From contig CP147779.1 of the NCBI GenBank assembly GCA_037308085.1, positions 1,120,001 through 1,184,000 of the forward strand: a stretch of DNA of 64,000 nucleotides, in the 5' to 3' direction. Within the stretch, counting starts at the first letter, position 1. Each line of letters starts with the position of its first letter. The translations under genes and the position numbers were made by a program. Under the pieces are notes generated by a model, which was not told the DNA's origin, searched no databases, and worked only from the letters and a program-made list of their open reading frames with translations. Positions 1 to 19,813 of this stretch are shown one piece after another. This DNA comes from Promethearchaeati archaeon SRVP18_Atabeyarchaeia-1. GTDB taxonomy: Archaea > Asgardarchaeota > Atabeyarchaeia > Atabeyarchaeales > Atabeyarchaeaceae.

Positions 1-1675
1 GAGCAAGAAGTCTCCATACGAATCCAAGATTTGGCTTAAGAACTATGACGAAGGTGTTCCGCCTAAACTACCTGAACCGAAATCTCCACTGAACAAGGTG
101 CTGGACGATGTTGCGAAGGAGTACCCAGAGAAGACTGCTGTTGTCTTCTACAAGAGGAAGATAACCTTTCGCGAGCTGAAGGATTACACTGACAGGCTAG
201 CCACAGCCTTCGTGGCAATGGGAATAAAGAAGGGTGACATCATTGGACTCCACATGCCTAACCTCCCGCATTATCCGATCACAATGTGGGGTGCATGGAA
301 AGCAGGCGCAGTTGTCATGGGTGTAAGCCCGCTTATGAAAGAACGGGATTTGAGACATCAACTCAAAGATTCAGGTGCCAAGGCCGTCGTGTCTGCTGAA
401 ATGTATGTGAAGATGGTTAGCACGATCAAGCCTGAAACGAAAATCGAACATGTAATCTCCGCAGGGCTGGGCGACTTCCCGGAGGGATCCCTTCCCAAGC
501 CCAAGGAAATACCAGGAGCAACTCACTTCATCAAACTCCTAACCGAATACAAACCGAACCCACCTCCTGTTCAGGTTGACTTAAAGGAAACACCCGCTTT
601 TCTCCAATATACGGGTGGGACAACAGGATTACCTAAGGGCGCTGTCATAACTCACTACAATCATCTGTCCAACATGTACCAATTCACGGCATGGCTTAAG
701 TTCAAACGAGGGGTAGAATCAGTCGTGTCGGGTTTTCCTTATTTCCACATAGCTGGGACACTAACATGCACAATGTCTATATTGAATGCGGCTCAGCAAG
801 CGTTGGTCGTGAACCCAAGAGATCTACCTCTGATTTTTCAGCTCGTCAATGAGCATAAGCCAACATTGTTAGCTAATGTTAGCACGCTCTACATGCTGAT
901 GCTCAGACACCCCGATTTCAAGAAATGCGACTTCAGCTCGGTTAAGTATTTCATAAGCGCAGCAGCTCCGTTTCCAGCAGAGGTCATAAAGGAATTCGAG
1001 AAAGCGACCGGGAAGAGAGTCATTGAAGCATACGGTTTGACGGAATGTTCTCCCCTCGTCACGGCGAACCCTGTTGAACACACAAGGAAAATCGGCTCAG
1101 TCGGAATGCCATTTCCGGATACAGAGATAAGAATCGTGGAACTGGGGGCAAAGAACAAGGAGGTTCCGCTAGGAGAACCTGGTGACCTTCTAGTCCGAGG
1201 TCCACAAGTCTTCAAAGGATACTTGAATAGACCTGAAGAAACTAGAACATCGCTAGTAGGCGACGGGTGGTGCCGAACAGGTGATGTAGCGAAAATGGAC
1301 GAAAATGGGTACATCTACATAGTAGACAGAACTAAAGACATGATTAATGTGGGTGGGTTGAAGGTGTATCCTAGAGAAGTTGACGACACATTGTGTGAAC
1401 ATCCCGCTGTGATGATGGCTGCAACAGTTGGGCTTACCGATCCCGATCGTCCAGGAAGCGAGAGAATAAAAGCGTTCGTCGTTCTCAAACAAGGCTACGA
1501 AGGAACTGGGAAAATGGAGCAGGAGCTAATACAGTTTGTGAAAGATAGGATATCCCCATACAAGGTTCCGAAGTACATAGAGTTCAGAAAGGAGTTGCCT
1601 CTTACACTCATAGGCAAAGTTGTGAAGGTATCGCTGAGAGAAGAAGAAAAGACCAAAGCGGCAGACCAGAAATGA
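1..1675 (+). CDS. Long-chain acyl-CoA synthetase (AMP-forming, FadD family), 5' end runs off the window
   Basis: YTGGTTGLPKG, YGLTE, RTGD and GKV motifs; frame is open from base 2 (SKKSPYESKIWLKNY...), so the true start is at or before the window edge. Confidence 0.93.
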   Translation, partial: SKKSPYESKIWLKNYDEGVPPKLPEPKSPLNKVLDDVAKEYPEKTAVVFYKRKITFRELKDYTDRLATAFVAMGIKKGDIIGLHMPNLPHYPITMWGAWKAGAVVMGVSPLMKERDLRHQLKDSGAKAVVSAEMYVKMVSTIKPETKIEHVISAGLGDFPEGSLPKPKEIPGATHFIKLLTEYKPNPPPVQVDLKETPAFLQYTGGTTGLPKGAVITHYNHLSNMYQFTAWLKFKRGVESVVSGFPYFHIAGTLTCTMSILNAAQQALVVNPRDLPLIFQLVNEHKPTLLANVSTLYMLMLRHPDFKKCDFSSVKYFISAAAPFPAEVIKEFEKATGKRVIEAYGLTECSPLVTANPVEHTRKIGSVGMPFPDTEIRIVELGAKNKEVPLGEPGDLLVRGPQVFKGYLNRPEETRTSLVGDGWCRTGDVAKMDENGYIYIVDRTKDMINVGGLKVYPREVDDTLCEHPAVMMAATVGLTDPDRPGSERIKAFVVLKQGYEGTGKMEQELIQFVKDRISPYKVPKYIEFRKELPLTLIGKVVKVSLREEEKTKAADQK

Positions 1676-1823
1676 CGCAAAGGAAATGGAGGCATTCATC
1701 TACCTCATCAGCGGACAGCTTCGCGTGGTGTCTCTCACGTCTGAGGTAGATCTCCTTCCACTTTTCTATTCTCATAGAGATAGGAAAAAGAGAAGATTAT
1801 GGGAATGGAGCCATGGACTAATT

Positions 1824-2996
1824 CTATAGTTGTTTGTTGGACAGTATCGTAACGCCTGCTACCGAACCCGTGCCTCCCAGATTGTGAGTTAATCCAATCT
1901 CGGCGTTGCTTACTTGGCGTTTATCTGCTTCATTTCTAAGGTGCCATGATATCTCGCATATTTGCGCGATTCCTGTTGCCCCTATTGGGTGACCTTTGCT
2001 CTTTAAGCCGCCACTTGGGTTAATCGGGATCTTTCCGCCTATTTCGGTGTTTCCTTGTTCAATGAATTTCCCGCCTTCGCCTTTCTTGCAGAATCCTAGA
2101 TCCTCTGTGTCAAGGATTTCGGTTATCGTGAAGCAGTCGTGCACCTCAGCTAGGTTAACGTCTTCGGGCCCAATGCCAGCCATTCTGTAAGCTTCTTTGC
2201 CAGCCTCGACTGTCGCGTAGAACGTGGTGAAATCTGGTTTTGAAGCCATGTTGAATGTGTCTGTCGCCAGACCCAATCCTGCAACGTAAACTGGTGCGTC
2301 GGTGTACTTCTTGGCTAGGTCAGCGCGGGTGATTATTACTGCCGCGGCTCCATCAGTTACAGGGCAGCAATCGAAGAGCCCGAGTGGAGAGCATACCATT
2401 GGTGCTTTTAGGGCATCCTCAAGTTTGATGGGTCTCTGGAAGTGGGCATACGGGTCTAGTGCTCCATTCTTGTGGTTCTTGACAGCCACGTAGGCCATTT
2501 GTTGCTTTGTGGTTCCAAAGTCATGCATATGCCTGTTTGCGTAGAATGCGAAGATGGCTGGCGCGGTCATTCCCCTAGCGTAGATTGGATGCATGCCTCT
2601 TGCGACGACCCCTTGGAGAGACTCGATTGGAGGGACGTCTCGCATCTTCTCTACTCCAAGGGCCAAGGCAACGTCGTACGTCCCTGATGCCACGGCGAAG
2701 CAGGCATTTCGAAAGGCGTCCATCCCGGTGGCACAGGCATTCTCCAGTCTGGAGACCGGTCTTGGAAAGAACCCGAGCGGCTCAGCAAGGGAGGCTCCAG
2801 TTAGGATCTCTCGTTTTATTATGCTGCCAATGCATGTCCCAAGCCATGCAGCTTGGATCTCCTTTTGGTCAATACCATTGTCAACGCTCTTGAGGGCGTT
2901 GAGATAGGCTTCGCTCATCATGTCCTCGTAACTTTTCTCGAATAGTTCCCCGAATTTAATCATCCCAAAACCTACAACTGCGACTTTGTTCTTCAT
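1824..2996 (-). CDS. Thiolase (archaeal/SCP2-type acetyl-CoA acyltransferase)
   Basis: ENACATG nucleophile Cys, HDCF, GHPIGATG, HNLGG. Confidence 0.93.
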   Translation of the reverse strand: MKNKVAVVGFGMIKFGELFEKSYEDMMSEAYLNALKSVDNGIDQKEIQAAWLGTCIGSIIKREILTGASLAEPLGFFPRPVSRLENACATGMDAFRNACFAVASGTYDVALALGVEKMRDVPPIESLQGVVARGMHPIYARGMTAPAIFAFYANRHMHDFGTTKQQMAYVAVKNHKNGALDPYAHFQRPIKLEDALKAPMVCSPLGLFDCCPVTDGAAAVIITRADLAKKYTDAPVYVAGLGLATDTFNMASKPDFTTFYATVEAGKEAYRMAGIGPEDVNLAEVHDCFTITEILDTEDLGFCKKGEGGKFIEQGNTEIGGKIPINPSGGLKSKGHPIGATGIAQICEISWHLRNEADKRQVSNAEIGLTHNLGGTGSVAGVTILSNKQL

Positions 2997-3042
2997 CTAG
3001 TTCTCACACTCCTATCAAGGAAATCGTTCTTGGCAGCTTGTT

Positions 3043-3456
3043 CTACTTCTTAGCCTCCGTCGCCTCCTTAACTGGTTTCGCCCGGAAACTGTACCTGAGA
3101 AGTCCTTCGGACTCACCAAATCTCCTGAAGACAAGCTCCACAGGCATGTCTATTTTCACTTCGTCTGGCTTCGCCTGAGTCATTGAAACCATTAGTCTTG
3201 CCCCGTCTTCCGTGTCCACTATGGCCATAATTGTCGGAGTCTCAAAACCGGGGGGCATAACATGCTCAACCGTGAAAGTCACGATTTTTCCCCTTCTAGT
3301 GATGTGGTGTTCCTCAAATCCTTCTGCGCTACCGCATTTGAGGCAAATGCTTCCCATCCTTGGGAAGTTTATGTAACCACATTTCTTGCACTTCAGACCT
3401 ACCAGTCTATAAAGTTGTGGAATCTCCCTCCACAACATTGGAGAAGCAATCGACAT
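3043..3456 (-). CDS. DUF35 Zn-ribbon/OB-fold acyl-CoA-binding scaffold
   Basis: CKKCG..FPR..CLKCG plus OB-fold; lies between thiolase and HMGS-like genes. Confidence 0.92.
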   Translation of the reverse strand: MSIASPMLWREIPQLYRLVGLKCKKCGYINFPRMGSICLKCGSAEGFEEHHITRRGKIVTFTVEHVMPPGFETPTIMAIVDTEDGARLMVSMTQAKPDEVKIDMPVELVFRRFGESEGLLRYSFRAKPVKEATEAKK

Positions 3457-3476
3457 TTTCTATTTCAACCTCCTCT

Positions 3477-4520
3477 TCAAGGGCTCGCCACAAACATTTC
3501 TTTCAGCTTCGCGTATTGAATGTAGTTTAGTATTTCCTTGGACTTCTGGAAGTTCTTGATTGAGTAGAATGCATTCTTTCTACTTTCTGCGGTTGGTGTC
3601 ACCTTTAGACTTATGGCATCGCTGCATCCTCCGCCGTAGGACAACAGCATGATTCTGTCATTTGGTTTTGACTGTTCCAGAACCTGCGCAAGACCTAGGA
3701 ACACGTATGCAGCACCCGTTTCTCCAAAAGAGTTGAACGTCACTCCCGGCATTAGATTCGGCATGTCGAACCCGATTTTCTTGGAAGCGTCTATCCCCTT
3801 CGACGGATCAATGCCAAAGGGTAGCATCTGCTGCACGACATACTTGAAATCCTTCGAAGTCTTACCAAGTTTCTTGACTAAGCCGATGGCCGCCTCAACG
3901 ACAGCTTTGGTATAGCCATACTCCCTGGAAAACCTGTCGTCTCCGCTGTCCCTTTCATACGGGTCTCCAGTTCTTTTCCACTTGTCGGCAAACTCTGAAG
4001 AGGAAGAGCTTGCGCCTTCGAACTCAGTTATTGTGTTCTCTTTGCCAATCACGACGGCTCCAGCGCCGGCGCCTGAATAGAATTCAAGAATGGAACTAGG
4101 TGCCCCAAGAAGGCCATCAGCGCCAACAGCTATGCCATACTTCGCTCTACCAGCGCTGATTAGATCCGTGCATGCCAATAATGCGGATGTTCCTGCTCTT
4201 GCAGAACCGCCGAATTCCATAATCGTCGCCGTACTAGGCAATCCAAGGTGAGCTGCGATCGTGGTTGCAATCATTCTTTCTGTATAGGGACTTGAGGTAG
4301 TTCCCAGGTAGACAGCCTCGATCTTCTCTGGGGGTATTCCCGAATGGCGAACGGCGTTAGTGGCTGCTTCTGCCGCCATCGTCACGGCGTCTTCATCGAC
4401 GTTCGGCACTGCCTTCTCAACATCCATTAAGGGTGGCGGGAAGTTGCTTGCCTTAAGAATCTCGCTTAACTTTATCCTGTAACTAGGAACATAAGCTCCT
4501 ACACCAACTATGCCGACCAT
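3477..4520 (-). CDS. HMG-CoA synthase-fold protein with degenerate catalytic residues (PhlA-like)
   Basis: GIVGVGAYVP, DEDAVTMA, GAGAGA, GETG, SYGGG; GTTS / GGSARAG / VQQM replace the GSES / FACKAG / HQPN motifs. Confidence 0.85.
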   Translation of the reverse strand: MVGIVGVGAYVPSYRIKLSEILKASNFPPPLMDVEKAVPNVDEDAVTMAAEAATNAVRHSGIPPEKIEAVYLGTTSSPYTERMIATTIAAHLGLPSTATIMEFGGSARAGTSALLACTDLISAGRAKYGIAVGADGLLGAPSSILEFYSGAGAGAVVIGKENTITEFEGASSSSSEFADKWKRTGDPYERDSGDDRFSREYGYTKAVVEAAIGLVKKLGKTSKDFKYVVQQMLPFGIDPSKGIDASKKIGFDMPNLMPGVTFNSFGETGAAYVFLGLAQVLEQSKPNDRIMLLSYGGGCSDAISLKVTPTAESRKNAFYSIKNFQKSKEILNYIQYAKLKEMFVASP

Positions 4521-4723: not shown

Positions 4724-6169
4724 TCACCGATTATTCTCGGTGTGCTTCAAGTAGTCCCTGTAATCAAGCATAGCCCTTATGGCCTGCGCCGCGGTCTGAG
4801 GATCCTCGTACACTGGGACACCTCCGTCTCCCCTTAGGTATTGCAGAACCTTACTGTCCTCATTGGCGTGTATTGTCAGTCCTATTATTGGTTTTCCATA
4901 TCGATGTTTGAGTTCCGCTAGCAGCTTCGCTTCATCTAGTTCTCTCTTAGTTCCCATCTGAGTAATGATTGCGTCATGTAAGACTTCAGTAAAAGCTTCA
5001 AGCAACCCGATACCTATGACTATCACGCCATCGATGTAGTCTTGTTTCAGAAGTGTTTCAGCACATGTTGAAAGTATGCCTTCCCCGAAGGCACCGTCAC
5101 TAGTGTCTACGGGATTCGTATGGCTCCAGTATTTTGGGAGTATCTTGCTTAGTGATTCAACTTCCCCATTTTCAAGCGGCGGTACTTTGAGGTTGAGTCG
5201 GTCAGCGTGATCCATGAATTGTACACCGACGCCTCCGCCAAAGGTCACTATGCCTAGATTAGGTCCTCTCGGGATGGGTTGAGTTGAGAAAGCCGTCGCC
5301 AGGTCAAACATCTTAGCGACACTATCAGCACGTATTGCGCCGCTTGCCTTCAAGGCTGCGGAAACGACTTTGTCAGAACCAGCTAACGCTCCAACGTGAG
5401 AGGCTACGACCCTTTGGCTCGTCTCTCCTGTTCCGGCTTTCATTACAAGTACAGGTTTCCTCTTGGAAGCTTCCTTGACCGCAGCCATGAGTTTCCGGCC
5501 GTTCTTCAGCCCTTCGAAGTAGGCCATTATGACCTTGGTTGCAGAGTCTTTTCCGTAGTAATCAATCATGTCAGATATGTCTAGGTCTGCTGAGTCTCCC
5601 ACATTGACGAACTTGCTCAAGCCTTGCCTTCGTCGATGCGTCAATCCGTGGACGATGACCCCGGGGCTACCACCTTGCGATACAAATGCTATCTGGCCTG
5701 CAAGAGGCCTTATGGGACCGAGCAACGCTGAGAAGCTGGAGGCGGCGCTATACACACCATTGCAGTTAGGTCCAGTGAAACGCAACCCACCTTTCCTGGC
5801 AATTCGGATGACCTCATGCTCCAAGTTGGAGCCTGACTCATCAACCTCACTGAACCCTGCAGAAATAACAATTGCTGTCTTGACGTTCTGGGAAACGCAG
5901 TCCTCCATAGTTTCTGGCACATATTTCGCCGGAAGCGTGAAGACAGCGCAGTCAATAGGTTCCTTGATTTTGTTCACCTTGGCAACCGCCTGAAGACCAA
6001 CAATTCTGGCGGCTGCGTTGGGATTCACGGGGTAGACTCTTCCTCTAAATCCGCCATCGACGATATTTCTTAGTACGAATCCACTCACGCTAACAGGATC
6101 CCTTGACGCGCCGATGCAGGCTACGACTTTTGGGTTGAATAATGGTTCGAGTTCGTTTGAAATAGTCAA
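4724..6169 (-). CDS. acdA: ADP-forming acyl/acetate-CoA ligase alpha subunit
   Basis: CoA-binding IGAS..VYPVNP, GPNCNG, SQGG, phospho-His in SHVGALAG, NPVD. Confidence 0.88.
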   Translation of the reverse strand: MTISNELEPLFNPKVVACIGASRDPVSVSGFVLRNIVDGGFRGRVYPVNPNAAARIVGLQAVAKVNKIKEPIDCAVFTLPAKYVPETMEDCVSQNVKTAIVISAGFSEVDESGSNLEHEVIRIARKGGLRFTGPNCNGVYSAASSFSALLGPIRPLAGQIAFVSQGGSPGVIVHGLTHRRRQGLSKFVNVGDSADLDISDMIDYYGKDSATKVIMAYFEGLKNGRKLMAAVKEASKRKPVLVMKAGTGETSQRVVASHVGALAGSDKVVSAALKASGAIRADSVAKMFDLATAFSTQPIPRGPNLGIVTFGGGVGVQFMDHADRLNLKVPPLENGEVESLSKILPKYWSHTNPVDTSDGAFGEGILSTCAETLLKQDYIDGVIVIGIGLLEAFTEVLHDAIITQMGTKRELDEAKLLAELKHRYGKPIIGLTIHANEDSKVLQYLRGDGGVPVYEDPQTAAQAIRAMLDYRDYLKHTENNR

Positions 6170-6503: not shown

Positions 6504-7520
6504 TTAGAACTTGACTTTGTCTATTCCCTTTAGCTTAAGTATCTCTCTTGTGTCCTTCGGCGTCGCGATCTCGTAGTCGAGGTCATGGGCGATCTTCACG
6601 ATCTTCTCCACGAGTTCCCCATTTCCTTTGGCGAGCTCGTGGTGTCTAACATAGATGTTGTCCTCAAGTCCGACTCTTACATGTCCACCCATGGCCATGG
6701 CAGCAGCCCCTAGATGGAACTCTGCAGGGTATCCTATTCCTATGACTGACCACGTGTATTCCACATTACGACCCAGCATTAGCGAAGCTTGCCGTGCTAT
6801 TCTGTCAGTTTCCGTCTGGAGGTGAACCAATTCGTACACCGTTGCGGCAGTTCCTCCAAGTACTCCCAAGACGTACTGGATGTGTAGCGGGAATTCAACC
6901 CAACCGAAACGCAGCATGGCAGCGGTATTCCATAGGCCATTAGTGCCATAGAGCTCCAGCTCGGGCTTGACTTTGTGCTCTCTCATTGCTTTGGCGAACA
7001 CGTCAAGATCTTTGAACGTGTTTCTGAAAACCATGTCTTTGCTGGATTCCACCATCGATTTCTCCCAGGTTGTCTTCCACTCCTTTATCCTCTCGGCAAG
7101 TGGGAATACAGAGAAATTCATCGACTCAATATCAAAGCTGCACATCTCAGGCTCAAACTCGGGCACCACCGCGATTCTCTGCTCCGGTGTCATTCCCATG
7201 CCACCACCGGTGGTTGTGCAAACCACTAGGTCATCGCATTTCTGCTTGATTTTGGTCAACGTTTCTTTCCAAACTTTAAGGTCAGCTGACGGTAAACCTG
7301 TCTTTGGATCTCTAACATGTACGTGAACCACTGAAGCGCCAGCCTTGTAGGCTGCCTTTGCTTCGTCGGAGATCTGGTCGGGTGTAATTGGCAGATAAGG
7401 AGTCTGGCTAGGAACAGTGGCGCTTCCAGTCAGGGCACAAGTTATTATTACTTTGCGCGGAGGTCTCTTGGCAGGTGCTTCCGCTGTCTTGCCAGGTGCC
7501 GTTACCTTTTTAGTAGACAT
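6504..7520 (-). CDS. Beta-keto acid cleavage enzyme (BKACE/DUF849, Kce family)
   Basis: IITCALTG, PITPDQI, HVHVRD, TTGG, RVGLEDN. Confidence 0.92.
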   Translation of the reverse strand: MSTKKVTAPGKTAEAPAKRPPRKVIITCALTGSATVPSQTPYLPITPDQISDEAKAAYKAGASVVHVHVRDPKTGLPSADLKVWKETLTKIKQKCDDLVVCTTTGGGMGMTPEQRIAVVPEFEPEMCSFDIESMNFSVFPLAERIKEWKTTWEKSMVESSKDMVFRNTFKDLDVFAKAMREHKVKPELELYGTNGLWNTAAMLRFGWVEFPLHIQYVLGVLGGTAATVYELVHLQTETDRIARQASLMLGRNVEYTWSVIGIGYPAEFHLGAAAMAMGGHVRVGLEDNIYVRHHELAKGNGELVEKIVKIAHDLDYEIATPKDTREILKLKGIDKVKF

Positions 7521-7648
7521 CTTCCTCTCACTCCTCTTTTGAAAATCTTCTAGTTCCTAATGTTGTACTGTACTCTGCAGCGTCAAATAAATAAAGTATT
7601 AGGTTTTTGGATTTCGCCAAATTGTGGGTGCTTGCCTCGGCAATAAGT

Positions 7649-8821
7649 TCAGGGCTTCTTCTGTTTCTCTTTTGACTCCTTATAGATTTCGCGTTGGATC
7701 AAGTAGCGCAGTATTTCGGATGTGCCTCCTCCGATGGGCATTAGTCTTGCGTCTCTCGCGAATTGCTCGACATCGTATTCCTTTGTGTACCCAATTCCTC
7801 CGAGCATCTGCAGGGCGCTGTAAGTCACGTTTACAGCTGTCTCCACTGCGAAGAGCTTCGCCATCGAAGCCTCTTTGGTGGCGCCTAGTCCTTTGTCAAT
7901 CATCCGGGCTGCCCTCAGCATGAGCAGTCTCGCAGCGTCTATCGCCATACCCATGTCTGCAACCTTGAAGCTCACTCCCTCAAACCTGCTTATGGTCTGG
8001 TCGAACTGAACTCTCTCGGTCGAGTACTTGACCGCTGCCTCAAAGGGCGTCCGAGCGCAACCTATCGCCTGGCCGGCAATCATGGTTCTCTCTATGTCAA
8101 GTTCGTCCATAACTACGAGGAATCCGCTATTCTCCTTGCCGATGATGTTTTCTTTGGGAACCTTGACGTTTTGAAATGTCAAGTGGGCAGCCTTCGCTCC
8201 TCGGTTACCCATAAGCTCGTAGTCTTTGACATGTTTGAACCCAGGCATAGTTTTCTCAACCAGGAATGCGGTCATGCCTTGGTGAGCGTGGACCTTTGGG
8301 TCAGTTACTGCGAAGACTAGCAGGTAGTCTGCTTCTCCACCATTGGTTATGAACCTTTTTTCGCCGTTCAGCAGATAATAGTCTCCTTCTTTCTTCGCTG
8401 TGGTTTTCATCCCGGCGACGTCCGATCCGACGTTTGGCTCGGTGATGCATATGCAACCTATTTTCTCTCCCCGTGCTAATTGTGGAAGAACCTCTGTCTT
8501 CTGTTGCTTTGTGCCAAACCGCACAATTGGCCAAGTAAAGAGAACTGAAGAGGCACCAACGCACATTCCTATGGCGGGGCTTAACGCACCCATTTCTTCA
8601 GCGAAAAGTGAAGCTATCACTGCACCTTGGTCAGATCCGCCGTATTCCTTAGGAATCAAGCCACCCAAGTTTCCCGTAGGTCTAAGAATCCTGAAGACCT
8701 CCCGTGGGTACCGATCCGTCTTCTCAATTTCCTCAGCGACACCAGTGAGCTCCCTCTTAAGAAAGTCCCTTGTCTCAACTTGGTACATTGCTTCTTCATC
8801 ATTCAGAAAGATGTTACTCAC
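7649..8821 (-). CDS. Acyl-CoA dehydrogenase (IVD/LCAD-type catalytic Glu)
   Basis: ITEPNVGSD, NGEKRFITNG, ELDIER, RVQF, IGGGT; start placed at GTG 8821 after GGTGG and by alignment to the paralog at 12637. Confidence 0.93.
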   Translation of the reverse strand: MSNIFLNDEEAMYQVETRDFLKRELTGVAEEIEKTDRYPREVFRILRPTGNLGGLIPKEYGGSDQGAVIASLFAEEMGALSPAIGMCVGASSVLFTWPIVRFGTKQQKTEVLPQLARGEKIGCICITEPNVGSDVAGMKTTAKKEGDYYLLNGEKRFITNGGEADYLLVFAVTDPKVHAHQGMTAFLVEKTMPGFKHVKDYELMGNRGAKAAHLTFQNVKVPKENIIGKENSGFLVVMDELDIERTMIAGQAIGCARTPFEAAVKYSTERVQFDQTISRFEGVSFKVADMGMAIDAARLLMLRAARMIDKGLGATKEASMAKLFAVETAVNVTYSALQMLGGIGYTKEYDVEQFARDARLMPIGGGTSEILRYLIQREIYKESKEKQKKP

Positions 8822-9028
8822 GTATACCACCCAAGAAAAATCTTGATCTTCTATCGCAAGTCTGCTCCTTATAACATCATCGTCTTCTGGCATCGAAAAC
8901 AAGGTGCACTTCAGGAGATGCGAAAGGAAGAAAAAGGCATTGAGAGCCTCAGTCTCGGGTCCCTTTCAGAAAGACCGAAGGGGGGAATGTCTGATCAGGA
9001 CGCCAAACTTGTGCGGTCATGTTTGGGC

Positions 9029-9490
9029 TCAAGCTGTACCCGCAGTCCTCAGTCTTGAAGCATATTCGCGAATTGCCTCCTCCTGTTCAGGTGATTCGAC
9101 GGATCGGGGTCGCGATCTCCTGACTTCTTTAATGGCGCTGTCAGCATCAAAGCCTTTCCTCACAAGGTACGCTGCTAGCAGTGACCCTGTCCTCCCCAAG
9201 CCCATCCTGCAGCAAACAAGTACGGGCTTACCCTGCTTTTCCATGTTCTCAACAAAATCGATGAATCTGTCGATTTGCTCCTGCGTTGGGGGCATGAATG
9301 AGGGGACTTTCAAGTGGAAATACTCGAACCCCATGCCTCTCATAAGTCCTTCGTCGACCGGCCATTCCACTAAGCAGATTATCGCACGGATGCCAAGCCC
9401 CCAGAGTTCAGATAGAGTTTCGCCTGAATCAGCTAACGCTGCACCAGCGATCCTACCTTCAACGAGCCAACTGAAGTTTCGAAGATTCAT
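9029..9490 (-). CDS. Dual-specificity (Cys-based, CX5R) phosphatase
   Basis: NFSW, VLVCCRMGLGRTG P-loop, RPRSVE..EQ. Confidence 0.88.
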   Translation of the reverse strand: MNLRNFSWLVEGRIAGAALADSGETLSELWGLGIRAIICLVEWPVDEGLMRGMGFEYFHLKVPSFMPPTQEQIDRFIDFVENMEKQGKPVLVCCRMGLGRTGSLLAAYLVRKGFDADSAIKEVRRSRPRSVESPEQEEAIREYASRLRTAGTA

Positions 9491-9651
9491 GAGCACTAGC
9501 CACGCGAAACATTGTTAGATATCATTATATATAGGAGCATCGGGAGACTTAGAACGACGACTATAGACTTTCTTGGACTGTCTAGGTCTTCAAGCCAGTT
9601 ATATGCGTTACCCGAAAGGGAAGAAAGTCTGGATGGAGGGCGATTCGTTAT

Positions 9652-10806: not shown

Positions 10807-10824
10807 AGGAGGGAGAGCGAAAGA

Positions 10825-11991
10825 ATGGTAGTAAACAAGGCAGCTATAATTGGTACCGGCTTGACAAAAACCGCCACAAAAAGAAGGGAAGTCACGCACC
10901 CAGACATAACATATGAGGCTGTGACAGCAGCTTTGAATGATGCGGGCATAACGCTGAAAGATGTTGATGCCGTTGTCTATGGCTGCATGGATCCATTTGA
11001 TGGAGTTGAAGCTCCTGACAGGTGGGATGCCGACTCAACTGGTGCTCCTCTTGGTAAACCCTATATGAAAATATCTACAGGTGGAACTACTGGAGGCTCA
11101 GCGGCTCAGGCAGGTTATTATCACGCAGCCTCAGGTCTCTTCGATGTGGTGCTGGTTGTCTGCTGTCAGAGAGTCGGTGAGTGCGAGGACGCACAACTTG
11201 TACTCAACACGGCGGTGGACCCGATTTACGAGAGGGAGACTGGGGCTGGAGCAATAACTGTTGCGGCGCTGCAGGGCGCAGCCCACATGGCGAAATATGG
11301 GACGAAGATGGAGCATTTTGCAATGGTTGCAGCCAAGAACCATGAGAATGCTTTCAACAACCCTAATGCTCACCTGCACTTGCACATGGCTGTCAAGGAT
11401 GTCATGAACTCTGGCGTCATCTCTTGGCCATTGACTCTCTACATGTGTTGCCCAAGGTCAGATGGGGCAGCGGCTGTCATATTTGCCTCAGAAAAGAAAG
11501 CGAAGCAACTATGCAAGGAGCCTGCTTGGGTTAAGGGTGCTGGTTCAATTTCAGACGCCTATTCAATGGGAGAGCATCCAGACTTTGCCGACTGGGATAC
11601 GCTGGAAATACTTGGCAGACGAGTGTACCGCAAGGCGAAAATATCAAACCCTCTTAAGGACTTCCAAGTGGCTGAGCTCTACGAAGCATTTGCGTGTCAA
11701 GAGGTACTGGAGTATGAGGCACTACGCTTCTGCGGCAAAGGTGAAGGGGGAAGTCTCGTGGAGAGTGGCTTGACAAGCATGAAGGGGGATCTTCCAGTAG
11801 ACCCGTCAGGTGGGGTCCAGGCTACTAACCCAATAGGTGCCACGGGGCTGATCAGAGTGGCTGAAGCGGCTCGTCAAGTCATGGGGAAAGCGGGTCAAAT
11901 GCAGGTATCCAACGTTCAGACAGCCTTAGCGCACGCGTGGGGAGGCGCGGTATCACTTCACACGATGATGATCCTGTCTAGAACGCCTTAG
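10825..11991 (+). CDS. Thiolase-fold protein, Ltp3-like (no nucleophilic Cys)
   Basis: KISTGGTTGGS, ELYEAF, TNPIGATG, HAWGG. Confidence 0.8.
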   Translation: MVVNKAAIIGTGLTKTATKRREVTHPDITYEAVTAALNDAGITLKDVDAVVYGCMDPFDGVEAPDRWDADSTGAPLGKPYMKISTGGTTGGSAAQAGYYHAASGLFDVVLVVCCQRVGECEDAQLVLNTAVDPIYERETGAGAITVAALQGAAHMAKYGTKMEHFAMVAAKNHENAFNNPNAHLHLHMAVKDVMNSGVISWPLTLYMCCPRSDGAAAVIFASEKKAKQLCKEPAWVKGAGSISDAYSMGEHPDFADWDTLEILGRRVYRKAKISNPLKDFQVAELYEAFACQEVLEYEALRFCGKGEGGSLVESGLTSMKGDLPVDPSGGVQATNPIGATGLIRVAEAARQVMGKAGQMQVSNVQTALAHAWGGAVSLHTMMILSRTP

Positions 11992-12082
11992 AGACATTTG
12001 GAGGAGCCACAAGACAAGTTGGGTAATCAGATCAGAATCAAGATGATCAAGAAGTGTGGGTAGAAGAGGTGAAGGTAGAGTC

Positions 12083-12580
12083 ATGAGTAGTGGGAGCAAA
12101 GATGTTGAAAAAGAGAAGAAAGAAGTATTCCTAGAGTTTCCCGGCAGATGGAACATCCCTTACGTACACTCTGCCGGTAGAGCAGCAACAAAGTTCTTCA
12201 CCGAGCTAAAGAACAAGAAGATCGTGGGGAACAAGTGCCCCAAATGCAACAGGGTTCTGATCCCTCCGAGGAGTTTCTGCGAGAGATGCTTTGTTCCGAC
12301 AACAGACTGGGTTGAAGTAAAAGACACTGGAGTCATTACGACTTTCACTATATGCTACGTTCAGTTTACAGGTTTGCCCAAACCTCCTTATGCCCTTGGT
12401 GGCGTCAAACTTGAAGGCGCTGACACGAGTCTGTTCTGGTTCATCGGAGGAGTACCGCTTGGAAACCAAAAGGAAGACTTCAAGAAAATGCCGATAGGTT
12501 CAAAGGCCAAAGCCGTCTGGAATGAAGATAGAAAAGGCGCAATGAGCGACATCAAATACTTCAAGCCATTGGGAATTTAG
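12083..12580 (+). CDS. DUF35 Zn-ribbon/OB-fold protein
   Basis: CPKC..PPRSFCERC plus OB-fold, LEGADT. Confidence 0.9.
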   Translation: MSSGSKDVEKEKKEVFLEFPGRWNIPYVHSAGRAATKFFTELKNKKIVGNKCPKCNRVLIPPRSFCERCFVPTTDWVEVKDTGVITTFTICYVQFTGLPKPPYALGGVKLEGADTSLFWFIGGVPLGNQKEDFKKMPIGSKAKAVWNEDRKGAMSDIKYFKPLGI

Positions 12581-12636
12581 CAGAAAAACAGATTATGAGT
12601 AGAGAACGTCGGCTAGTAGCGTTGGTGGTGTTAACT

Positions 12637-13812
12637 ATGAGTTCGGTGTTCTTCACTGAGGAAGAAAACAAGTTTCGAGAAGAAGTTAGAGAATTTGCGA
12701 GGAAAGAGATTGAGCCAATAGCTCAAGATATAGAGAAAAAAGATGGATATGACCTCATCAGGAGGTCTTTCAAGAAGCTTGGAGCACGTGGTTTCCTCGG
12801 GGTTTTACACCCAAAGGATGTTGGAGGATCCGCTAGGGGAGTAGCTTACGAGGTAATTGTTGGAGACGAGATCGCCTATGCGAGCGGCTCGCTTGATCTT
12901 TGCCGAGCGGCCTCGGTATGCCTATATGGCATGCCTCTGAACAGATTTGGAACGAAAGAGCAGAGGCAAAAGTACTTGGCTCCGGTAATAAAGGGCGAGA
13001 AGATTGGAGCCATAGGTATAACTGAGCCTGATGTTGGCTCAGACACGGCCGGCATGAAGACCAACGCCAAGAAGGAAGGGGACCACTACGTCTTGAATGG
13101 CGAGAAACGTTTCATAACCAATGGCAGTCAGGCTGATTTTCTCTGCATATTCGCAATTACGAACGCAAAGGCACACCCGCATCAAGGGATGTCGGCTTTC
13201 ATAATTGAAAAAGGGATGCCTGGGTTCAGCGCATTGAAAGACTACGAGCTAATGGGGTTAGACGGAGCGAGGGTCTCGCACCTAAAGTTCGAGAACGTAG
13301 AGGTTCCAAAGGAGAACCTGCTCGGAGCGGAAAGCTTCGGCTTTCCAATATTGATGGATGAACTTGACAGCGAACGAACGGCAATTGCAGGTCAACTCAT
13401 AGGTGGAGCCAGAGCAGCCCTAGATATCGCTGTGAAGTACTCGACTGAGCGAGTCCAGTTTGACCAGACCATAAGCAGGTTTGAGGGAGTGAGCTTCAAG
13501 GTTGCAGACATGGCGACGAGAATAGAGGCGTCGCGATTGCTGACGCTCGAAGCGGCTAGAAGGCTCGACAAGGGTCTTCCAGCGACGAAGCATGCGACGA
13601 TGGCTAAACTCTTCGCGTCGGAGACTGCAATCGACGTGACCTACCAATCGCTTCAAGTCCTCGGGGGAATAGGCTACACGAAGGAGTATCCAATGGAAAT
13701 GCTAGCCAGAAATGCTAGGCTCGCCACGATCGGCGGCGGAACTGCTGAGATATGCAGATTCCTAATCCAAAGAGAAGTCTATAAGGAATTTAAGGGCAGC
13801 AAGAAGAAGTAG
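12637..13812 (+). CDS. Acyl-CoA dehydrogenase (IVD/LCAD-type), close paralog of 7649..8821
   Basis: ITEPDVGSD, NGEKRFITNG, ELDSER, IGGGT. Confidence 0.93.
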   Translation: MSSVFFTEEENKFREEVREFARKEIEPIAQDIEKKDGYDLIRRSFKKLGARGFLGVLHPKDVGGSARGVAYEVIVGDEIAYASGSLDLCRAASVCLYGMPLNRFGTKEQRQKYLAPVIKGEKIGAIGITEPDVGSDTAGMKTNAKKEGDHYVLNGEKRFITNGSQADFLCIFAITNAKAHPHQGMSAFIIEKGMPGFSALKDYELMGLDGARVSHLKFENVEVPKENLLGAESFGFPILMDELDSERTAIAGQLIGGARAALDIAVKYSTERVQFDQTISRFEGVSFKVADMATRIEASRLLTLEAARRLDKGLPATKHATMAKLFASETAIDVTYQSLQVLGGIGYTKEYPMEMLARNARLATIGGGTAEICRFLIQREVYKEFKGSKKK

Positions 13813-14378: not shown

Positions 14379-15548
14379 ATGACCAGTGCTAGGGACATTC
14401 TCAACAAGCTCACGTGGGACAAGAGGTTCAGTACACAGAATTATGCCGTGGTTTTCGTGCATAGGGGAGCGCCTCACGACCTCAAAGTTGTTAAGGCCAG
14501 CGCAATCAGGGAAAAGGGCAAGAGCTTCTTCATGATCGAGGAGGACACGATGATACCTTACCACAGGATTCGCGCCATCAGAGACCTAAAGAGTGGAGAA
14601 GACATATACTCCAAGAACGAAGGGGTACCGTTTCCACTTCGCGAGATCGAAGGACAGGAGGGACTCGGAGAATTCCAAGACGAAGCCCACAGTGGTACTC
14701 GAATCGAATTGGATGGTGAATATGGATCCACTATTCGCTGCGCAGCGAGGCTGTCTTTTCCCGAGGGTGATCCCGAGTCTTTCAGGGCGCGAGTTAGAGA
14801 CGGAGTAACAAAGTTTGGCTTGGTTGAACTGTCCTTTTTCCGTTACACTGGCGAACCAGAGGAATCTGAGAGATACGAATCCATGGTGGATTTTGCCTCA
14901 AAGGTCATTGCTGAGGCACACTTGGACGTTATCTCTCTTCACCTGCCAAGTATCAACATTCTCAACCGGTCGAGGACGAGGAGGATGCTAGATACATTTC
15001 TACCGTTCTGTACGCAGGTCGACTGCAAGAGCATTGTTGTACATCCAGGGATACTCGATGTGCAACACCTCTCTAAACTAGATAGGATTCGGGCAAGATC
15101 AGACCTCGCAGAATTCCTGAAATCAATCTCGCGTGAACTCTCAGAAAGCAAAATCATCCTCTCCATCGAAACCTACCCTGAACAAAACAGAGTGCCTTCC
15201 GGAACACCAGACATGCATGATTTTGTGTCCGCTCTGAGTCCGTCTTGCCAAATAGCGTACGACACTTCCCATACTATGGGGAGTACTGATTCTGTAGTCG
15301 AAGACATTATCAGGTGCATCGAAAAGATCAACGTCTTCCATTTCTCCAATCGATGCAGAGATGAACGGCACATGCCGATCTTCAGTTCCAGAGGCGATCT
15401 GAACTTCACTTCGATTATTGACGCGATAAAATCTGCGGGGTTCGAAGGGATGATAGTCCTCGAATACCAGCCAAAGAAATACAGAATGCTTCTCGAACGC
15501 GACTTAAGGTCACTTAGAGACGCGATCCGCCAGCGTGCGACGTGCTGA
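14379..15548 (+). CDS. Fusion: DUF504/MJ1316 domain + AP-endonuclease-2/xylose-isomerase-like TIM barrel
   Basis: N-term RDILNKLTW..HRGAP..IPYHRI; C-term SLHLP, VVHPG, IETY, YDTSH, FHFSN, ERHMP, LEY. Confidence 0.8.
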   Translation: MTSARDILNKLTWDKRFSTQNYAVVFVHRGAPHDLKVVKASAIREKGKSFFMIEEDTMIPYHRIRAIRDLKSGEDIYSKNEGVPFPLREIEGQEGLGEFQDEAHSGTRIELDGEYGSTIRCAARLSFPEGDPESFRARVRDGVTKFGLVELSFFRYTGEPEESERYESMVDFASKVIAEAHLDVISLHLPSINILNRSRTRRMLDTFLPFCTQVDCKSIVVHPGILDVQHLSKLDRIRARSDLAEFLKSISRELSESKIILSIETYPEQNRVPSGTPDMHDFVSALSPSCQIAYDTSHTMGSTDSVVEDIIRCIEKINVFHFSNRCRDERHMPIFSSRGDLNFTSIIDAIKSAGFEGMIVLEYQPKKYRMLLERDLRSLRDAIRQRATC

Positions 15549-15607
15549 CACGAGAAGACAAAAAAAGAGAGATTGTAGGAAAGTTTCCCCATTTCTGAAT
15601 CGGAGTT

Positions 15608-15988
15608 CTATCCTAGTGGAATCACGCCCACAGTCATGGCAAGCTTCGTAAACATGCCTATCTCGTTGCCGGCGCCGTAGATCATTAGTTTTCCTTGTTC
15701 TAACAGGGAACCGCTACCAATCGGCTTGGCCTTACCCGAAATCATGTCATTCCAAGCGTCTGGCTCAACCTTAAGTGTAAGATCTGGCGCTGGGTATAAC
15801 CCACTTCCGAACTGTGCGCCATCTGGTCGGAAGACGATGTGAAATTCCTTTTCTCCGATCTGGAAGTTGTGGATCTTACCGTAGTATCCCTTGAGCCATG
15901 ATTTCAGGATGTCCTTTGCTTTTGGGTTCTTGTTGATAGAGTCAACAAGCTTCTTGAACCCAGCTTCAACTTTTTGTAAGTCTACCAT
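15608..15988 (-). CDS. SCP2 sterol/lipid-binding domain protein
   Basis: PDLTLKV..DAWNDMISGK....LEQGKLMIYG pattern. Confidence 0.75.
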   Translation of the reverse strand: MVDLQKVEAGFKKLVDSINKNPKAKDILKSWLKGYYGKIHNFQIGEKEFHIVFRPDGAQFGSGLYPAPDLTLKVEPDAWNDMISGKAKPIGSGSLLEQGKLMIYGAGNEIGMFTKLAMTVGVIPLG

Positions 15989-16009
15989 AACCAACTCTCC
16001 TTTGGTTCT

Positions 16010-16258: not shown

Positions 16259-16272
16259 TGTTTGACTTCCCC

Positions 16273-16566: not shown

Positions 16567-16590
16567 TATTCTTCTCACTTCCTCCTTTCT

Positions 16591-17304: not shown

Positions 17305-17902
17305 GTTGACTAATTCGCTTCTATTTTATAACAAGGTTAAAAGCATATTGGGTAGAAAATCGCGGCTTACCTCGGATGAAATCCAATCCACTGCCACTCA
17401 GAACAACCTACTATTAGCTGTTTGCCAGGAAACCCCGTTAGCCTGATGCTCAACCGACGTGAAATGGACTTGATGCAATACATTTCATACAGTTGGGGAG
17501 AGATTGGTCAGCTACCCGCCGCTGAAGCTTGCGGGCTGGCAACTCGAGGATTTCGCAATATCTCATCCAAGGTGTCTGCTCTCTAATGTGGCCAGCAATT
17601 ATGGCCTTATTCGTGGTTGGCATCTTGGAACGATTCCAGTCCCTGAACTCAAAAATGTGGACATCTGTCGGAATCTCGGGGGGAGTTGAAGAAATCTGGC
17701 GAGATTTAGCATCAAAGTCACCAGGGTTTTTGAAAAAGACTCGCTGGCATGAGTTTTTCCCGAGGTAGGCGCTTTAGCAGTTCTGCGCCTTCCCAGATCT
17801 TTTCACCTCTTTTCGTCGTAGACTCTTTCTCCATTAAAGTGCAGAGATCTGAGAAGAGTGTGCCCGCAGGCATTCAGTATTTCGCCACAATCTCTTTGTA
17901 CG

Positions 17903-19813
17903 CTAGATTTTTCTGGCGATTTCAGCTGCACCATGTACGGCATCCATTATCTTTCCACGCTTCGCCGCGTCTCCCACGACATAGGTCTCAGGGATCTTCC
18001 TTCTCAGATTCTCGAGGAGACTCGTGCTTGATACTGTACCCAGAGCAACGACAACGGTATCAGCTCTTTCCAGGTATCTGCCGCCTTCCTTCTCGTAGAC
18101 TGCTCCATCTTCGTTGATTTCAACAACCTTTGCCGATGTTATCAGCTCTCCTCCGAAGTCAGCGAATCTGTGTCTAACGTAGGAGTTGAAGGCTGGGATC
18201 ATTTCAGTTCCCACTTTTTTCATCTGCTCAATTATGGTAACCTTCTTGCCGTGTTCAGCAAGGTGATAGCCCGTCTCGAGGCCTATCTCTCCTCCACCTA
18301 GAATAGCGACCTTTTCACCCACATTCACTTTCCCTGCCAAGACATCTGTCGCGGGAACAACGTTCTCACCTTCAATACCAGGGATATCAGGAAGCGCTAA
18401 GATTGAACCCGTAGCCATACAAGCTACGTCCGGCGCCATGTCGTCAATCATAGATTCACTGACCTCTTCTGCCAAATGAATGTCTACCCCCAGTCTGTCA
18501 AGCTCATGTCTAAAGTAGGGAACTATGTTTTTCAGTTCGTACTTGTACGAGGGAGTTGAAGCCAGCAAAACCTGTCCACCGAGCTCATTATTCTGCTCAT
18601 AGAGCGACACGCGATGACCTCTCAACGCCGCTATTCTCGCAAATTCCATTCCACCAACCCCACCACCAATCACCAAAACCTTCTTGGGTTTCTGCGCAGC
18701 CTTGAACCGGAACTCATCTTCCCTCCCAACTGCAGCATTGAGGACGCAAGTCACAGGCTTGAAAAGAAAGAGCATGTTTATGCATCCCTCATTGCAGGCA
18801 ATGCAAGGCCTTATCTCCTCCAGCCTGTGCTCCATTGCTTTCCTTGGAAACTCCGGGTCGGCTATCAACGCTCTGCCAACAGAAACCAAGTCTGCATGAC
18901 CCTTCTCCACAATTTCCTCGGCAAGCCTGACATCATTTATCCTGCCCACGGCGATGACGGGTATATTAGCAACCTCTTTTATTCCCTGAGCCAAGGGCAC
19001 CATGAACCCTCTCGGTAGCCACATTGGTGCCGTTGACTCGCCATTCTTGGAGTCGTAGATTCCGCCCGAAACGTGAATCGCATCAACTCCCGCCTTCTCA
19101 ATAACTTGCGCAATTCTCTTGGCATCAGCCAAGACTAAGCCGCCCTCAAAGTAATCATCCCCGTTAATTCTGCAAATGATCGGAAAGCTTTCCCCAACTT
19201 TCTTCTTAATCGTGTGAATTATCTCCAACAGGAACCTTGTTCTGCCTAAGAAATCCCCGCCATACCTATCCTTCCTTAGGTTGGTAAGGGGAGATAAGAA
19301 CTGGTTAACGAGGTATCCGTGGGCAGCATGTATTTCCACAGTATCGAATCCCGCGTCCTTAATTCTTCTTGTCGCCTCACCGAAGGCATCGATGGTCTCC
19401 TCTATCTCTTTAAGGGTCAGCGGACGAGGCGTCTCTCTAATCAACAAGCAGGGAACATCAGAAGCCGAAACCGACTGCGCTCCTATAATTGCAGAAGGTC
19501 CTTGCCTGCCTCCATGAAAAAGCTGGATCGCCGCCTTAGCCCCCTCAGCGTGAATCGCTCCTGCAAGCTTGCTCAAACCTGGGATCTTATCATCGTTGGT
19601 GAGACTAATCTGGTTATTCAAGCCTCTGGCCAGAGGGTGAACGAAAGCACCCTCAACAATCACCAAGCCCACTCCGCCACGAGCGCGCTCCCGATAATAC
19701 TCGATCCCGCGTTGAGTTATCGAGCCATCTCCAGTCGCATAGTTTGTGTTCATCGGAGGCATTACGAGGCGGTTCCTAAGTTCCACACGTCCGATTCTTA
19801 CTGGTTCAAACAA
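17903..19813 (-). CDS. NADH:flavin oxidoreductase (Old Yellow Enzyme + FAD/FeS domain; 2,4-dienoyl-CoA reductase/BaiCD-like)
   Basis: RNRLVMPPM, HAAHGYL, CIACNEGC, GGGVGG, GGGEIG; start may lie 3 codons upstream (see findings). Confidence 0.92.
   Translation of the reverse strand: MFEPVRIGRVELRNRLVMPPMNTNYATGDGSITQRGIEYYRERARGGVGLVIVEGAFVHPLARGLNNQISLTNDDKIPGLSKLAGAIHAEGAKAAIQLFHGGRQGPSAIIGAQSVSASDVPCLLIRETPRPLTLKEIEETIDAFGEATRRIKDAGFDTVEIHAAHGYLVNQFLSPLTNLRKDRYGGDFLGRTRFLLEIIHTIKKKVGESFPIICRINGDDYFEGGLVLADAKRIAQVIEKAGVDAIHVSGGIYDSKNGESTAPMWLPRGFMVPLAQGIKEVANIPVIAVGRINDVRLAEEIVEKGHADLVSVGRALIADPEFPRKAMEHRLEEIRPCIACNEGCINMLFLFKPVTCVLNAAVGREDEFRFKAAQKPKKVLVIGGGVGGMEFARIAALRGHRVSLYEQNNELGGQVLLASTPSYKYELKNIVPYFRHELDRLGVDIHLAEEVSESMIDDMAPDVACMATGSILALPDIPGIEGENVVPATDVLAGKVNVGEKVAILGGGEIGLETGYHLAEHGKKVTIIEQMKKVGTEMIPAFNSYVRHRFADFGGELITSAKVVEINEDGAVYEKEGGRYLERADTVVVALGTVSSTSLLENLRRKIPETYVVGDAAKRGKIMDAVHGAAEIARKI

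Follow-up and report, generated by a model that had tools for sequence, protein, structure and literature searches.

Acyl-CoA gene blocks around a candidate retro-aldolase module in Candidatus Atabeyarchaeum

Which chemistry is served by the acyl-CoA genes that crowd together at one locus of the Candidatus Atabeyarchaeum genome Atabeya-1? The locus (positions 1-19813) opens a 64,000-nucleotide stretch of contig CP147779.1 (positions 1,120,001 to 1,184,000), hereafter the window, whose numbering is used below unless genome positions are given. The source genome, Atabeya-1 of Valentin-Alvarado et al. 2024, is complete and consists of a single 2.81-Mb contig. Pfam and NCBIfam scans placed 13 genes of acyl-CoA metabolism within these 20 kb. 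All those listed by an initial annotation were present, namely a FadD, two modules of DUF35 and thiolase-fold proteins, an AcdA, a beta-keto acid cleavage enzyme (BKACE), two acyl-CoA dehydrogenases (ACADs), an SCP2 protein and an old yellow enzyme (OYE). In a tentative reading that is close to an even call, the stretch is a mosaic of operon-sized blocks which together form an aldolase-type acyl-CoA catabolic island, for a modified, ATP-yielding beta-oxidation of C3-substituted or bulky chains. Block A consists of FadD, divergent from a triad of an HMG-CoA-synthase-like (HMGS-like) protein, DUF35 and a thiolase; block B of the AcdA alpha subunit, BKACE, an ACAD and a phosphatase; block C of ThlA, ThlB, DUF35 and the second ACAD; and block D of SCP2, a nitroreductase and a FadH-like OYE.

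A tblastn census of the genome counted 59 members of the families concerned, 13 of which lie in this 20 kb where 0.42 would be expected (Poisson P 1e-15), a figure that is inflated, though not by orders of magnitude, by the choice of the families from this very window. No other 20-kb interval of the 2.81-Mb genome is as dense, and the maximum in 2000 random placements was 6 or fewer. Seven further family members lie in the following 50 kb. These data support a non-random acyl-CoA catabolic neighbourhood.

The ThlA/ThlB/DUF35 module

The candidate retro-aldolase is encoded in block C, which comprises four genes:

9652-10806, plus strand: ThlA, degenerate thiolase-fold subunit (residue alignment)
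10825-11991, plus strand: ThlB, Cys-less thiolase-fold protein, candidate retro-aldolase (motif table, invariant columns)
12056-12580, plus strand: DUF35, partner of ThlA/ThlB (PF01796 and PF12172)
12595-13812, plus strand: ACAD with LDSER and IGGGT, 14 bp 3' of the DUF35 gene

The spacing of these genes (18, 64 and 14 bp) suggests an operon. The SCP2-type thiolase paralogues of the genome were aligned together with 40 homologues from other Asgard genomes. The position of the thiolase nucleophile is occupied by Gly in ThlB and in 14 of 14 homologues (35-91% identity). Tyr286 replaces the His of the HDCF motif and is invariant in 15 ThlB homologues spanning the same range of identity, and Asn335, in an Asn-Pro pair, replaces the His of the GHP motif, again as an invariant column. 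In ThlA, three residues are deleted at the nucleophile site, and all three catalytic positions vary among 13 homologues, so that ThlA looks like a silent partner.

In Ltp2 (YDHF), Sal (YDCY) and TbSLP (YDCF), the Tyr of the motif equivalent to HDCF is the catalytic base and the nucleophile is replaced by Gly (PMC12329534), and a heteromeric aldol-lyase has a precedent in Ltp3-Ltp4 (PMC6678751). ThlB thus carries an aldolase-type active-site signature and is a candidate retro-aldolase. It shares with Ltp2-ChsH2(DUF35), Sal-Shy(DUF35) and Ltp3-Ltp4 the SCP2-thiolase fold, the Cys-to-Gly replacement and the Tyr in place of the HDCF His; the module shares with them a DUF35 partner, encoded here 64 bp downstream, and the tandem ThlA/ThlB gene pair resembles the heteromeric Ltp3-Ltp4, which acts on C24-branched sterol side chains. 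It differs from these retro-aldolases by the lack of an adjacent MaoC hydratase, by its archaeal anaerobic host and by its coupling to BKACE. The best NCBIfam model for ThlB is PRK08313 (329 bits, cut-off 514), and PRK07937 scores 101-128 bits.

An AlphaFold2 model of ThlB (pLDDT 82) has the SCP2-thiolase fold. The modelled ThlA+ThlB complex scored 0.94, against 0.00 for the best of 3 controls; 58 of 80 solved complexes attain this mark, as do 2 of 110 mismatched pairs, counts that are only approximate here because our own alignments were used. At least 90% of contacts are shared between runs, and the partner pLDDT is at least 91. Since thiolase dimers have already been solved, this pass may stem from likeness to them, and the model shows a predicted canonical dimer interface, not proof of binding.

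The best match to ThlB on a plasmid is on pLP1 of Rhodococcus qingshengii (NZ_CP088909.1, 29175-48338). It is 44% identical, has the same Tyr and Asn motifs and is followed by a DUF35 gene whose product is 41% identical to that of block C. Their neighbours are two ACADs, a split MaoC hydratase, a CaiB/BaiF protein, mycofactocin-coupled short-chain dehydrogenases and an acyl-CoA ligase, a layout that we take to be typical of steroid side-chain clusters. The gene ahead of the ThlB-like one (locus 8084-8998) encodes a 304-aa "hypothetical protein", which is a degenerate thiolase-fold subunit similar to ThlA.

Of the eight SCP2-type thiolase paralogues of Atabeya-1 that were aligned, four are without the nucleophilic Cys (the genome census counts nine paralogues). 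In a paralogous set at genome positions 71200-77400, two thiolase-fold proteins, with G/Y/M in the first and G/H/H in the second at the three catalytic positions, are each followed by a DUF35; an AP_endonuc_2 TIM barrel precedes them and an IVD-type ACAD comes last. A TIM barrel also follows block C (14379-15548), but it is not a close paralogue of the one at 71-77 kb.

Dehydrogenases, thiolase triad and BKACE

Blocks A and B lie between the start of the window and block C:

1-1675, plus strand: FadD-like acyl-CoA ligase, about 558 aa (PF00501, 299 bits; PF13193)
1824-2996, minus strand: SCP2-type thiolase with intact catalytic set (NF004720, 469 bits, cut-off 420)
3043-3456, minus strand: DUF35 zinc-ribbon/OB-fold protein, partner in the thiolase triad (PF01796 and PF12172)
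3477-4520, minus strand: HMGS-like protein without the E-C-H-N tetrad, presumed scaffold (alignment to 6ESQ_I and PhlA)
4724-6169, minus strand: AcdA-like alpha subunit of an NDP-forming acyl-CoA synthetase (PF13380, PF13607, TIGR02717)
6504-7520, minus strand: BKACE of an uncharacterised subfamily (PF05853, 327 bits)
7649-8902, minus strand: ACAD with LDIER and IGGGT (three Pfam ACAD domains, all present)
9029-9496, minus strand: dual-specificity phosphatase of PTP type (PF22784, 85 bits)

Both ACADs of the locus, and a third paralogue at genome positions 76-77 kb, carry MDELDxER and IG-GGT. In HMMER alignments, LDxER falls on Glu254 (LDLER) and IGGGT on IGAGT (Gly374) of the isovaleryl-CoA dehydrogenases (IVD) of human (1IVH) and Brucella (4O5M). 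The corresponding residues in Bcd and in a Bacillus ACAD are Gly and YEGT, and the Glu of MCAD/Bcd type is absent from both ACADs of the locus. The IVD-type arrangement that had been noted for the pair therefore holds: they have the catalytic Glu on helix G and the Gly which replaces the Tyr-Glu of MCAD. The Glu254/Gly374 pair of IVD is credited with making room for the 3-methyl group of the substrate. The block C enzyme is 59% identical to that of block B and 61% to the paralogue, and all three are found in thiolase-fold or BKACE contexts. We rejected their assignment as IVD orthologues: they differ from IVD in scoring no higher to it than to Bcd/SCAD, and no leucine-catabolic context, such as a liu-type carboxylase and hydratase, surrounds them.

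In block A, the thiolase keeps Cys88, HDCF and GHP, and its best solved relatives are 7YVY (289 bits) and 6ESQ_A (283 bits). The genes of the triad are spaced by 20 and 46 bp, which suggests a second operon (HMGS-like-DUF35-thiolase). The HMGS-like protein aligns end to end with 6ESQ_I, the HMGS of the Methanothermococcus thermolithotrophicus complex (194 bits), and scores 173 bits with PhlA. All four residues of the Glu-Cys-His-Asn tetrad of HMGS, defined in a 2026 paper (PMC12960953), are replaced relative to 6ESQ_I (T/A/Q/E: GSES to GTTS, Cys to Ala, His to Gln and Asn to Glu). A Pseudomonas fluorescens complex in the same catalytic state, with the tetrad lost and the Cys, HDxF and GHx of its thiolase kept, cleaved acetoacetyl-CoA but formed neither a condensation product nor HMG-CoA (PMC12960953). 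In view of the lost tetrad, the intact thiolase and this precedent, block A is best read as a degradative thiolase with a catalytically dead HMGS-like scaffold, and not as a branch-point enzyme. Of the two DUF35-scaffolded thiolase-fold modules first annotated, only the second, with its Cys-to-Gly replacement and invariant Tyr, is a retro-aldolase candidate.

The triad resembles the archaeal mevalonate HMGS/ACAT/DUF35 complex (6ESQ) in its three adjacent genes and in the thiolase itself, and differs from it by the replaced tetrad. A genuine HMGS-thiolase-DUF35 operon lies at genome positions 797.9-800.5 kb; its HMGS scores 554 bits, against 295 for the HMGS-like protein. This score and the tetrad loss rule out block A as the HMG-CoA-forming operon of the organism. 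The Friedel-Crafts acyltransferases PhlABC and MucABC have also lost the HDxF His (PMC12960953), whereas the block A thiolase keeps it, and no polyketide synthase or nonribosomal peptide synthetase is encoded nearby. Block A is further set apart from the HMGS/ACAT/DUF35 complexes by its gene order (HMGS-like, DUF35, thiolase), its unfused DUF35 and a narrow distribution: among 5.8 billion proteins, the HMGS-like subfamily comprises 8 clusters at 75% identity or more, all from Atabeya/Njord-type Asgard archaea, and the next matches are true HMGS at 38% identity. For PhlABC-type enzymes an evolutionary path was proposed in 2026 (PMC12960953), and the triad represents its "step 1" state in an archaeon. 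The NCBIfam HMGS model still scores the HMGS-like protein above its cut-off, and its NCBI-derived name is "hydroxymethylglutaryl-CoA synthase". Labels of this kind would inflate counts of mevalonate, thiolase and lysine-fermentation capacity in Asgard metabolic reconstructions, and a tally of "thiolases" and "Bcd" based on family names would give a wrong picture of beta-oxidation in Atabeya-1.

FadD, one of 7 family members in the genome, probably starts with a TTG 2 nt upstream of the window; every NCBIfam ligase model scores it below its cut-off. It adjoins the thiolase triad in two relatives as well, Atabeya-2 (CP147780; proteins 71-96% identical) and LC30, of the same genus.

In block B, BKACE covers positions 1-274 of the 274 of PF05853. 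This full-length match likens it to the Kce of lysine fermentation and the triacetate acetoacetate-lyase of phloroglucinol degradation. It differs from both by scoring below every curated cut-off (344 bits for its best NCBIfam model, 3,5-dioxohexanoate:acetyl-CoA transferase, cut-off 430; 255 bits for Kce, cut-off 382) and by having Cys-less thiolase-fold proteins as neighbours. In the literature searched, we found no description of an association between BKACE and Cys-less thiolase-fold proteins. No BKACE-DUF35 fusion was seen among the best 120 of 4323 similar proteins, nor in two matches to longer proteins.

The association recurs far from Atabeya-1. Among 16 Asgard loci examined around ThlB homologues, 10 have BKACE directly beside ThlA-ThlB-DUF35-DUF35, all from one other Asgard family (f9) and spread over four genera. 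The BKACE is of either of two subtypes, one of which is 63% identical to that of block B (loci L024, L028 and L035). In most of the 10 loci a crotonase comes next; many also encode FadD, SCP2, a second crotonase, an Fe-alcohol dehydrogenase, a CrtI-family flavoprotein and an FNR/2Fe-2S reductase, together with a thiolase-fold protein of Cys-less HDAF type and an ACAD-like protein that carries Glu at the IVD position. The full set was seen in L028 only (G205:C11:264500-284400). In genome G049 an ACAD of the type found here adjoins a ThlAB-type pair, and in G009 the neighbouring ACAD is cut by the contig end.

The AcdA alpha subunit is one of 8 family members in the genome and scores 401 bits with TIGR02717, under the cut-off of 567; beta subunits are encoded elsewhere, at genome positions 731 kb and 991 kb.

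The gene content of block B brings amino-acid fermentation into consideration. The ACADs would then oxidise isovaleryl-CoA or other branched CoA esters, BKACE would act as in lysine fermentation, and the thiolase and AcdA would harvest ATP from acetoacetate and acetyl-CoA. The IVD hallmark residues fit this explanation. BKACE, a Bcd/IVD-like ACAD, the thiolase and the ATP-forming synthetase also share one strand and together look like the lower half of a lysine fermentation pathway. A peptide-based lifestyle is predicted for the organism, and the published tables for Atabeya-1 call its BKACE (gene 1135) kce (PMC11291895). Lysine 2,3-aminomutase (TIGR00238) was, however, not found in the complete one-contig genome, and lysine fermentation was rejected as the source of the BKACE substrate. 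BKACE also scores below the Kce cut-off. A search for 5,6-aminomutase (PF09043) found no match in the genome and was uninformative, since the control search was equally silent. No methylcrotonyl-CoA carboxylase lies nearby, the sole carboxyltransferase gene of the genome (PF01039) being at 2.30 Mb, and ThlA/ThlB would be left unexplained. We consider amino-acid fermentation quite unlikely.

The proposed route weighed against its alternatives

From gene content, motifs, residue conservation, paralogy and synteny, all directly observed, we infer the reactions and the kind of substrate of the aldolase-type island. FadD would form the CoA ester and the ACADs would introduce the 2,3 double bond, with the catalytic base located, as in IVD, on helix G and a pair of glycines opening the pocket where MCAD has Tyr-Glu. 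The double bond would then be hydrated by a crotonase encoded outside the stretch, and C-C cleavage by retro-aldol reaction would take place on ThlB, with Tyr286 as base, in a ThlA/ThlB heterodimer docked by DUF35. BKACE would turn a free beta-keto acid and acetyl-CoA into an acyl-CoA and acetoacetate, the block A thiolase would cleave acetoacetyl-CoA or another 3-oxoacyl-CoA, and AcdA, with a beta subunit from elsewhere, would conserve the thioester energy as ATP. An aldolase-type module together with IVD-like dehydrogenases makes branched or bulky substrates a reasonable guess, and we consider them plausible. If the ThlA/ThlB/DUF35 aldolase is real, Asgard archaea and many anaerobic bacteria would hold a C-C cleavage module for substrates that block thiolysis.

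Several observations weigh against this reading. No enoyl-CoA hydratase or 3-hydroxyacyl-CoA dehydrogenase was found by Pfam and NCBIfam scans of positions 1-20 kb, and the chemical link from the aldolase product to the BKACE substrate is missing. At position +2 of its Tyr motif ThlB has Ala or Pro in place of the His of Ltp2 or the Cys of Sal, and could therefore be a non-catalytic scaffold. Compared with solved structures, among which Ltp3/Ltp4 have none, it is nearer to true thiolases than to Ltp2/Sal (165 versus 87 bits), and a Foldseek search with its model ranks Ltp2 19th and Sal 44th, behind solved thiolases, without separating aldolases from thiolases. The ACADs are closer to the butyryl-CoA dehydrogenases 4L1F (312 bits) and 5OL2 (301 bits) than to IVD (287 and 273 bits). 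Five of the nine genomic ACADs have Glu at the IVD/LCAD position, so this feature is not special to the locus. Finally, the locus is not conserved as a whole. Its parts lie at five places in Atabeya-2:

1.075-1.080 Mb: FadD, thiolase, DUF35, HMGS-like protein, then a 124-aa AcdA C-terminal remnant
1.116-1.123 Mb: AcdA, MJ1316 gene, SCP2, small ORF, nitroreductase and MtaA, without OYE
1.273-1.277 Mb: phosphatase, ACAD and BKACE
2.181 Mb: second ACAD alone
2.297-2.300 Mb: ThlA, ThlB and DUF35

In LC30 they are spread over at least 4 contigs, with the OYE elsewhere and no ACAD after DUF35. The conserved units are thus the blocks and not the whole stretch. The claim of one dedicated, conserved cluster fell with the preset synteny check, and the initial interpretation as a whole is supported in part: BKACE-ThlAB-DUF35 occurs with crotonase, SCP2 and FadD in family f9, but the stretch itself has neither hydratase nor hydroxyacyl-CoA dehydrogenase.

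As to the missing link, carboxylation of the ketone between aldolase and BKACE was considered and rejected, the candidates being the only acetone-carboxylase-like Hydantoinase_B gene of the genome, at position 2.646 Mb, and the carboxyltransferase at 2.30 Mb, both unlinked to the locus. The sole racemase gene of the genome (PF02515, CaiB/BaiF) is at 768 kb, and none is present in the cluster.

Some of these points would suit straight-chain beta-oxidation or a crotonate/butyrate-type fermentation, in which intact thiolases (1824-2996 and 37.2-38.5 kb) would cleave, the ACADs would be Bcd-like and ThlA/ThlB would be silent scaffolds. The best solved ACAD relatives are indeed butyryl-CoA dehydrogenases, the second catalytic residue that Ltp2 and Sal use is absent from ThlB, and the published reconstruction of Atabeya-1 predicts beta-oxidation and crotonate use (PMC11291895). 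A canonical set at 36.8-40.5 kb, composed of DUF35, an intact thiolase, a 3-hydroxyacyl-CoA dehydrogenase and a crotonase, could serve this metabolism; it had been described as separate from the locus, and it is. Yet the invariance of Tyr286 and Asn335 across homologues of 35-91% identity points to a conserved active site rather than decay, and both ACADs lack the MCAD/Bcd-type Glu. Moreover, straight-chain beta-oxidation has no place for the BKACE that is conserved beside the module, and the closest bacterial module found, that of pLP1, sits in a cluster of presumably steroid type. A straight-chain role for the locus is in our view fairly unlikely.

The dispersal of the blocks could also mean that the stretch is a coincidental mosaic, in which unrelated acyl-CoA operons without a common substrate were joined by frequent rearrangement. 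The two relatives carry the blocks at other positions, in otherwise differently ordered neighbourhoods, and the AcdA remnant beside the HMGS-like gene of both marks a recombination breakpoint. Among the three genomes, the OYE is at this position in Atabeya-1 only, and unrelated genes (the phosphatase, the MJ1316 and TIM-barrel gene, a 101-aa ORF and the nitroreductase) are interspersed among the acyl-CoA genes. Against this, 13 family members in 20 kb are far above random placement, BKACE, ThlAB-DUF35, FadD, SCP2 and ACAD-like genes come together again in a distant Asgard family, and blocks B and C, on the minus and plus strands respectively, are joined by a 155-bp divergent intergenic region. 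Coincidence therefore appears improbable.

Two further observations concern the same blocks. In both relatives, the neighbour of the HMGS-like gene encodes just the last 124-126 residues of AcdA (79-83% identical; L006, 9071-9787, and L005, 894-1271), and a full AcdA is present elsewhere in both; the remnant has the look of a scar left when recombination within AcdA split the blocks or brought them together. The phosphatase keeps its linkage to ACAD and BKACE in Atabeya-1, Atabeya-2 and LC30, acyl-CoA enzymes being unusual partners for it. A regulatory role is conceivable, as is action on a phosphorylated cofactor or substrate.

The direction of the pathway is a separate matter, as the aldolase and BKACE reactions are reversible in principle. 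In an anabolic use, thiolase/DUF35 complexes would drive condensation in a reverse-beta-oxidation-type synthesis of fatty acids or beta-branched chains. A ketothiolase/DUF35 nucleates the fatty-acid synthase complex in Sulfolobus acidocaldarius (bioRxiv 10.1101/2024.07.05.601840). The stretch nevertheless encodes no ketoacyl-CoA reductase, MaoC dehydratase or NADPH enoyl-CoA reductase, FadD, ACADs and an ATP-forming AcdA are typical of catabolism, and no condensation of acetyl-CoA was seen with the P. fluorescens counterpart of block A (PMC12960953). Anabolic use is highly improbable.

Returning to the catabolic island, its substrate had initially been sought among phytanyl chains, terpenoids and sterols. 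Nothing in the organism identifies such a substrate, and an isoprenoid or sterol identity would be assigned by analogy only. We nonetheless formulated one specific, doubtful version of the route, in which an IVD-type ACAD, a crotonase, ThlA/ThlB/DUF35 and BKACE would provide an anaerobic Asgard with a thiolase- and carboxylase-free path for 3-methyl-branched, isoprenoid-derived acyl-CoAs. Dehydrogenation would be followed by hydration to a tertiary alcohol and by retro-aldol cleavage into a methyl ketone and acetyl-CoA, and BKACE would bring a beta-keto acid back into the route. The complete version, starting from a hydrocarbon or alcohol, would be that of the f9 clusters with their CrtI-family flavoprotein, 2Fe-2S reductase and Fe-alcohol dehydrogenase. 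The ThlA/ThlB/DUF35 module bears on the question of which organisms break down isoprenoid lipids in anoxic soils and sediments, and by what route; this version, if true, would give a first enzymatic handle on the oxygen-free breakdown of isoprenoid lipids and hydrocarbons.

The conserved f9 cluster extends over about 17 kb (L028, 1-19901; likewise L024, L035, L036, L026, L027 and L029) and an F420-type LLM oxidoreductase is also listed in it. Its CrtI-family flavoprotein scores 87 bits with the CrtI structure 4DGK and 147 bits with the carotenoid isomerase model. The cluster looks like a fuller pathway that would start from an alcohol or a hydrocarbon, and by analogy the CrtI-family gene hints at isoprenoids. 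No homologue of its CrtI-like and reductase genes was found in the Atabeya-1 genome, and its SCP2 has no detectable sequence similarity to that of block D.

Block D and the flanking genes

ORF calling with Pfam and NCBIfam gave 18 genes in positions 1-21.5 kb. Those which follow block C are:

14379-15548, plus strand: MJ1316 and TIM-barrel gene, with a xylose-isomerase-like barrel (Pfam scan)
15608-15994, minus strand: SCP2-domain protein (PF02036, a weak 27.7 bits, cut-off 21.3)
between the SCP2 and OYE genes, minus strand: a 101-aa ORF, then the nitroreductase
17903-19813, minus strand: FadH/BaiCD-like OYE with an Fe-S motif and an FAD/NAD(P) domain (PF00724, 276 bits; PF07992)
20424-21479, plus strand: MtaA/CmuA-type methyltransferase of the URO-D family, directly past the island

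An Rfam search of positions 1-22 kb gave no family match. In the published tables the two DUF35 genes are numbers 1132 and 1140, and only BKACE, these two, the MJ1316 gene and, beyond the stretch, the URO-D-family gene pass the KEGG thresholds (PMC11291895).

The OYE scores 556 bits with the NCBIfam BaiCD model, under the cut-off of 825. Together with the 598-bp spacer before it (17305-19813), it is missing between the nitroreductase and MtaA genes of both relatives, where the gap is 800-870 bp; this segment is a lineage-specific insertion or relocation. The URO-D-family gene is syntenic with the SCP2-nitroreductase block in both relatives and suits the published methylotrophy of the lineage, not lipid metabolism.

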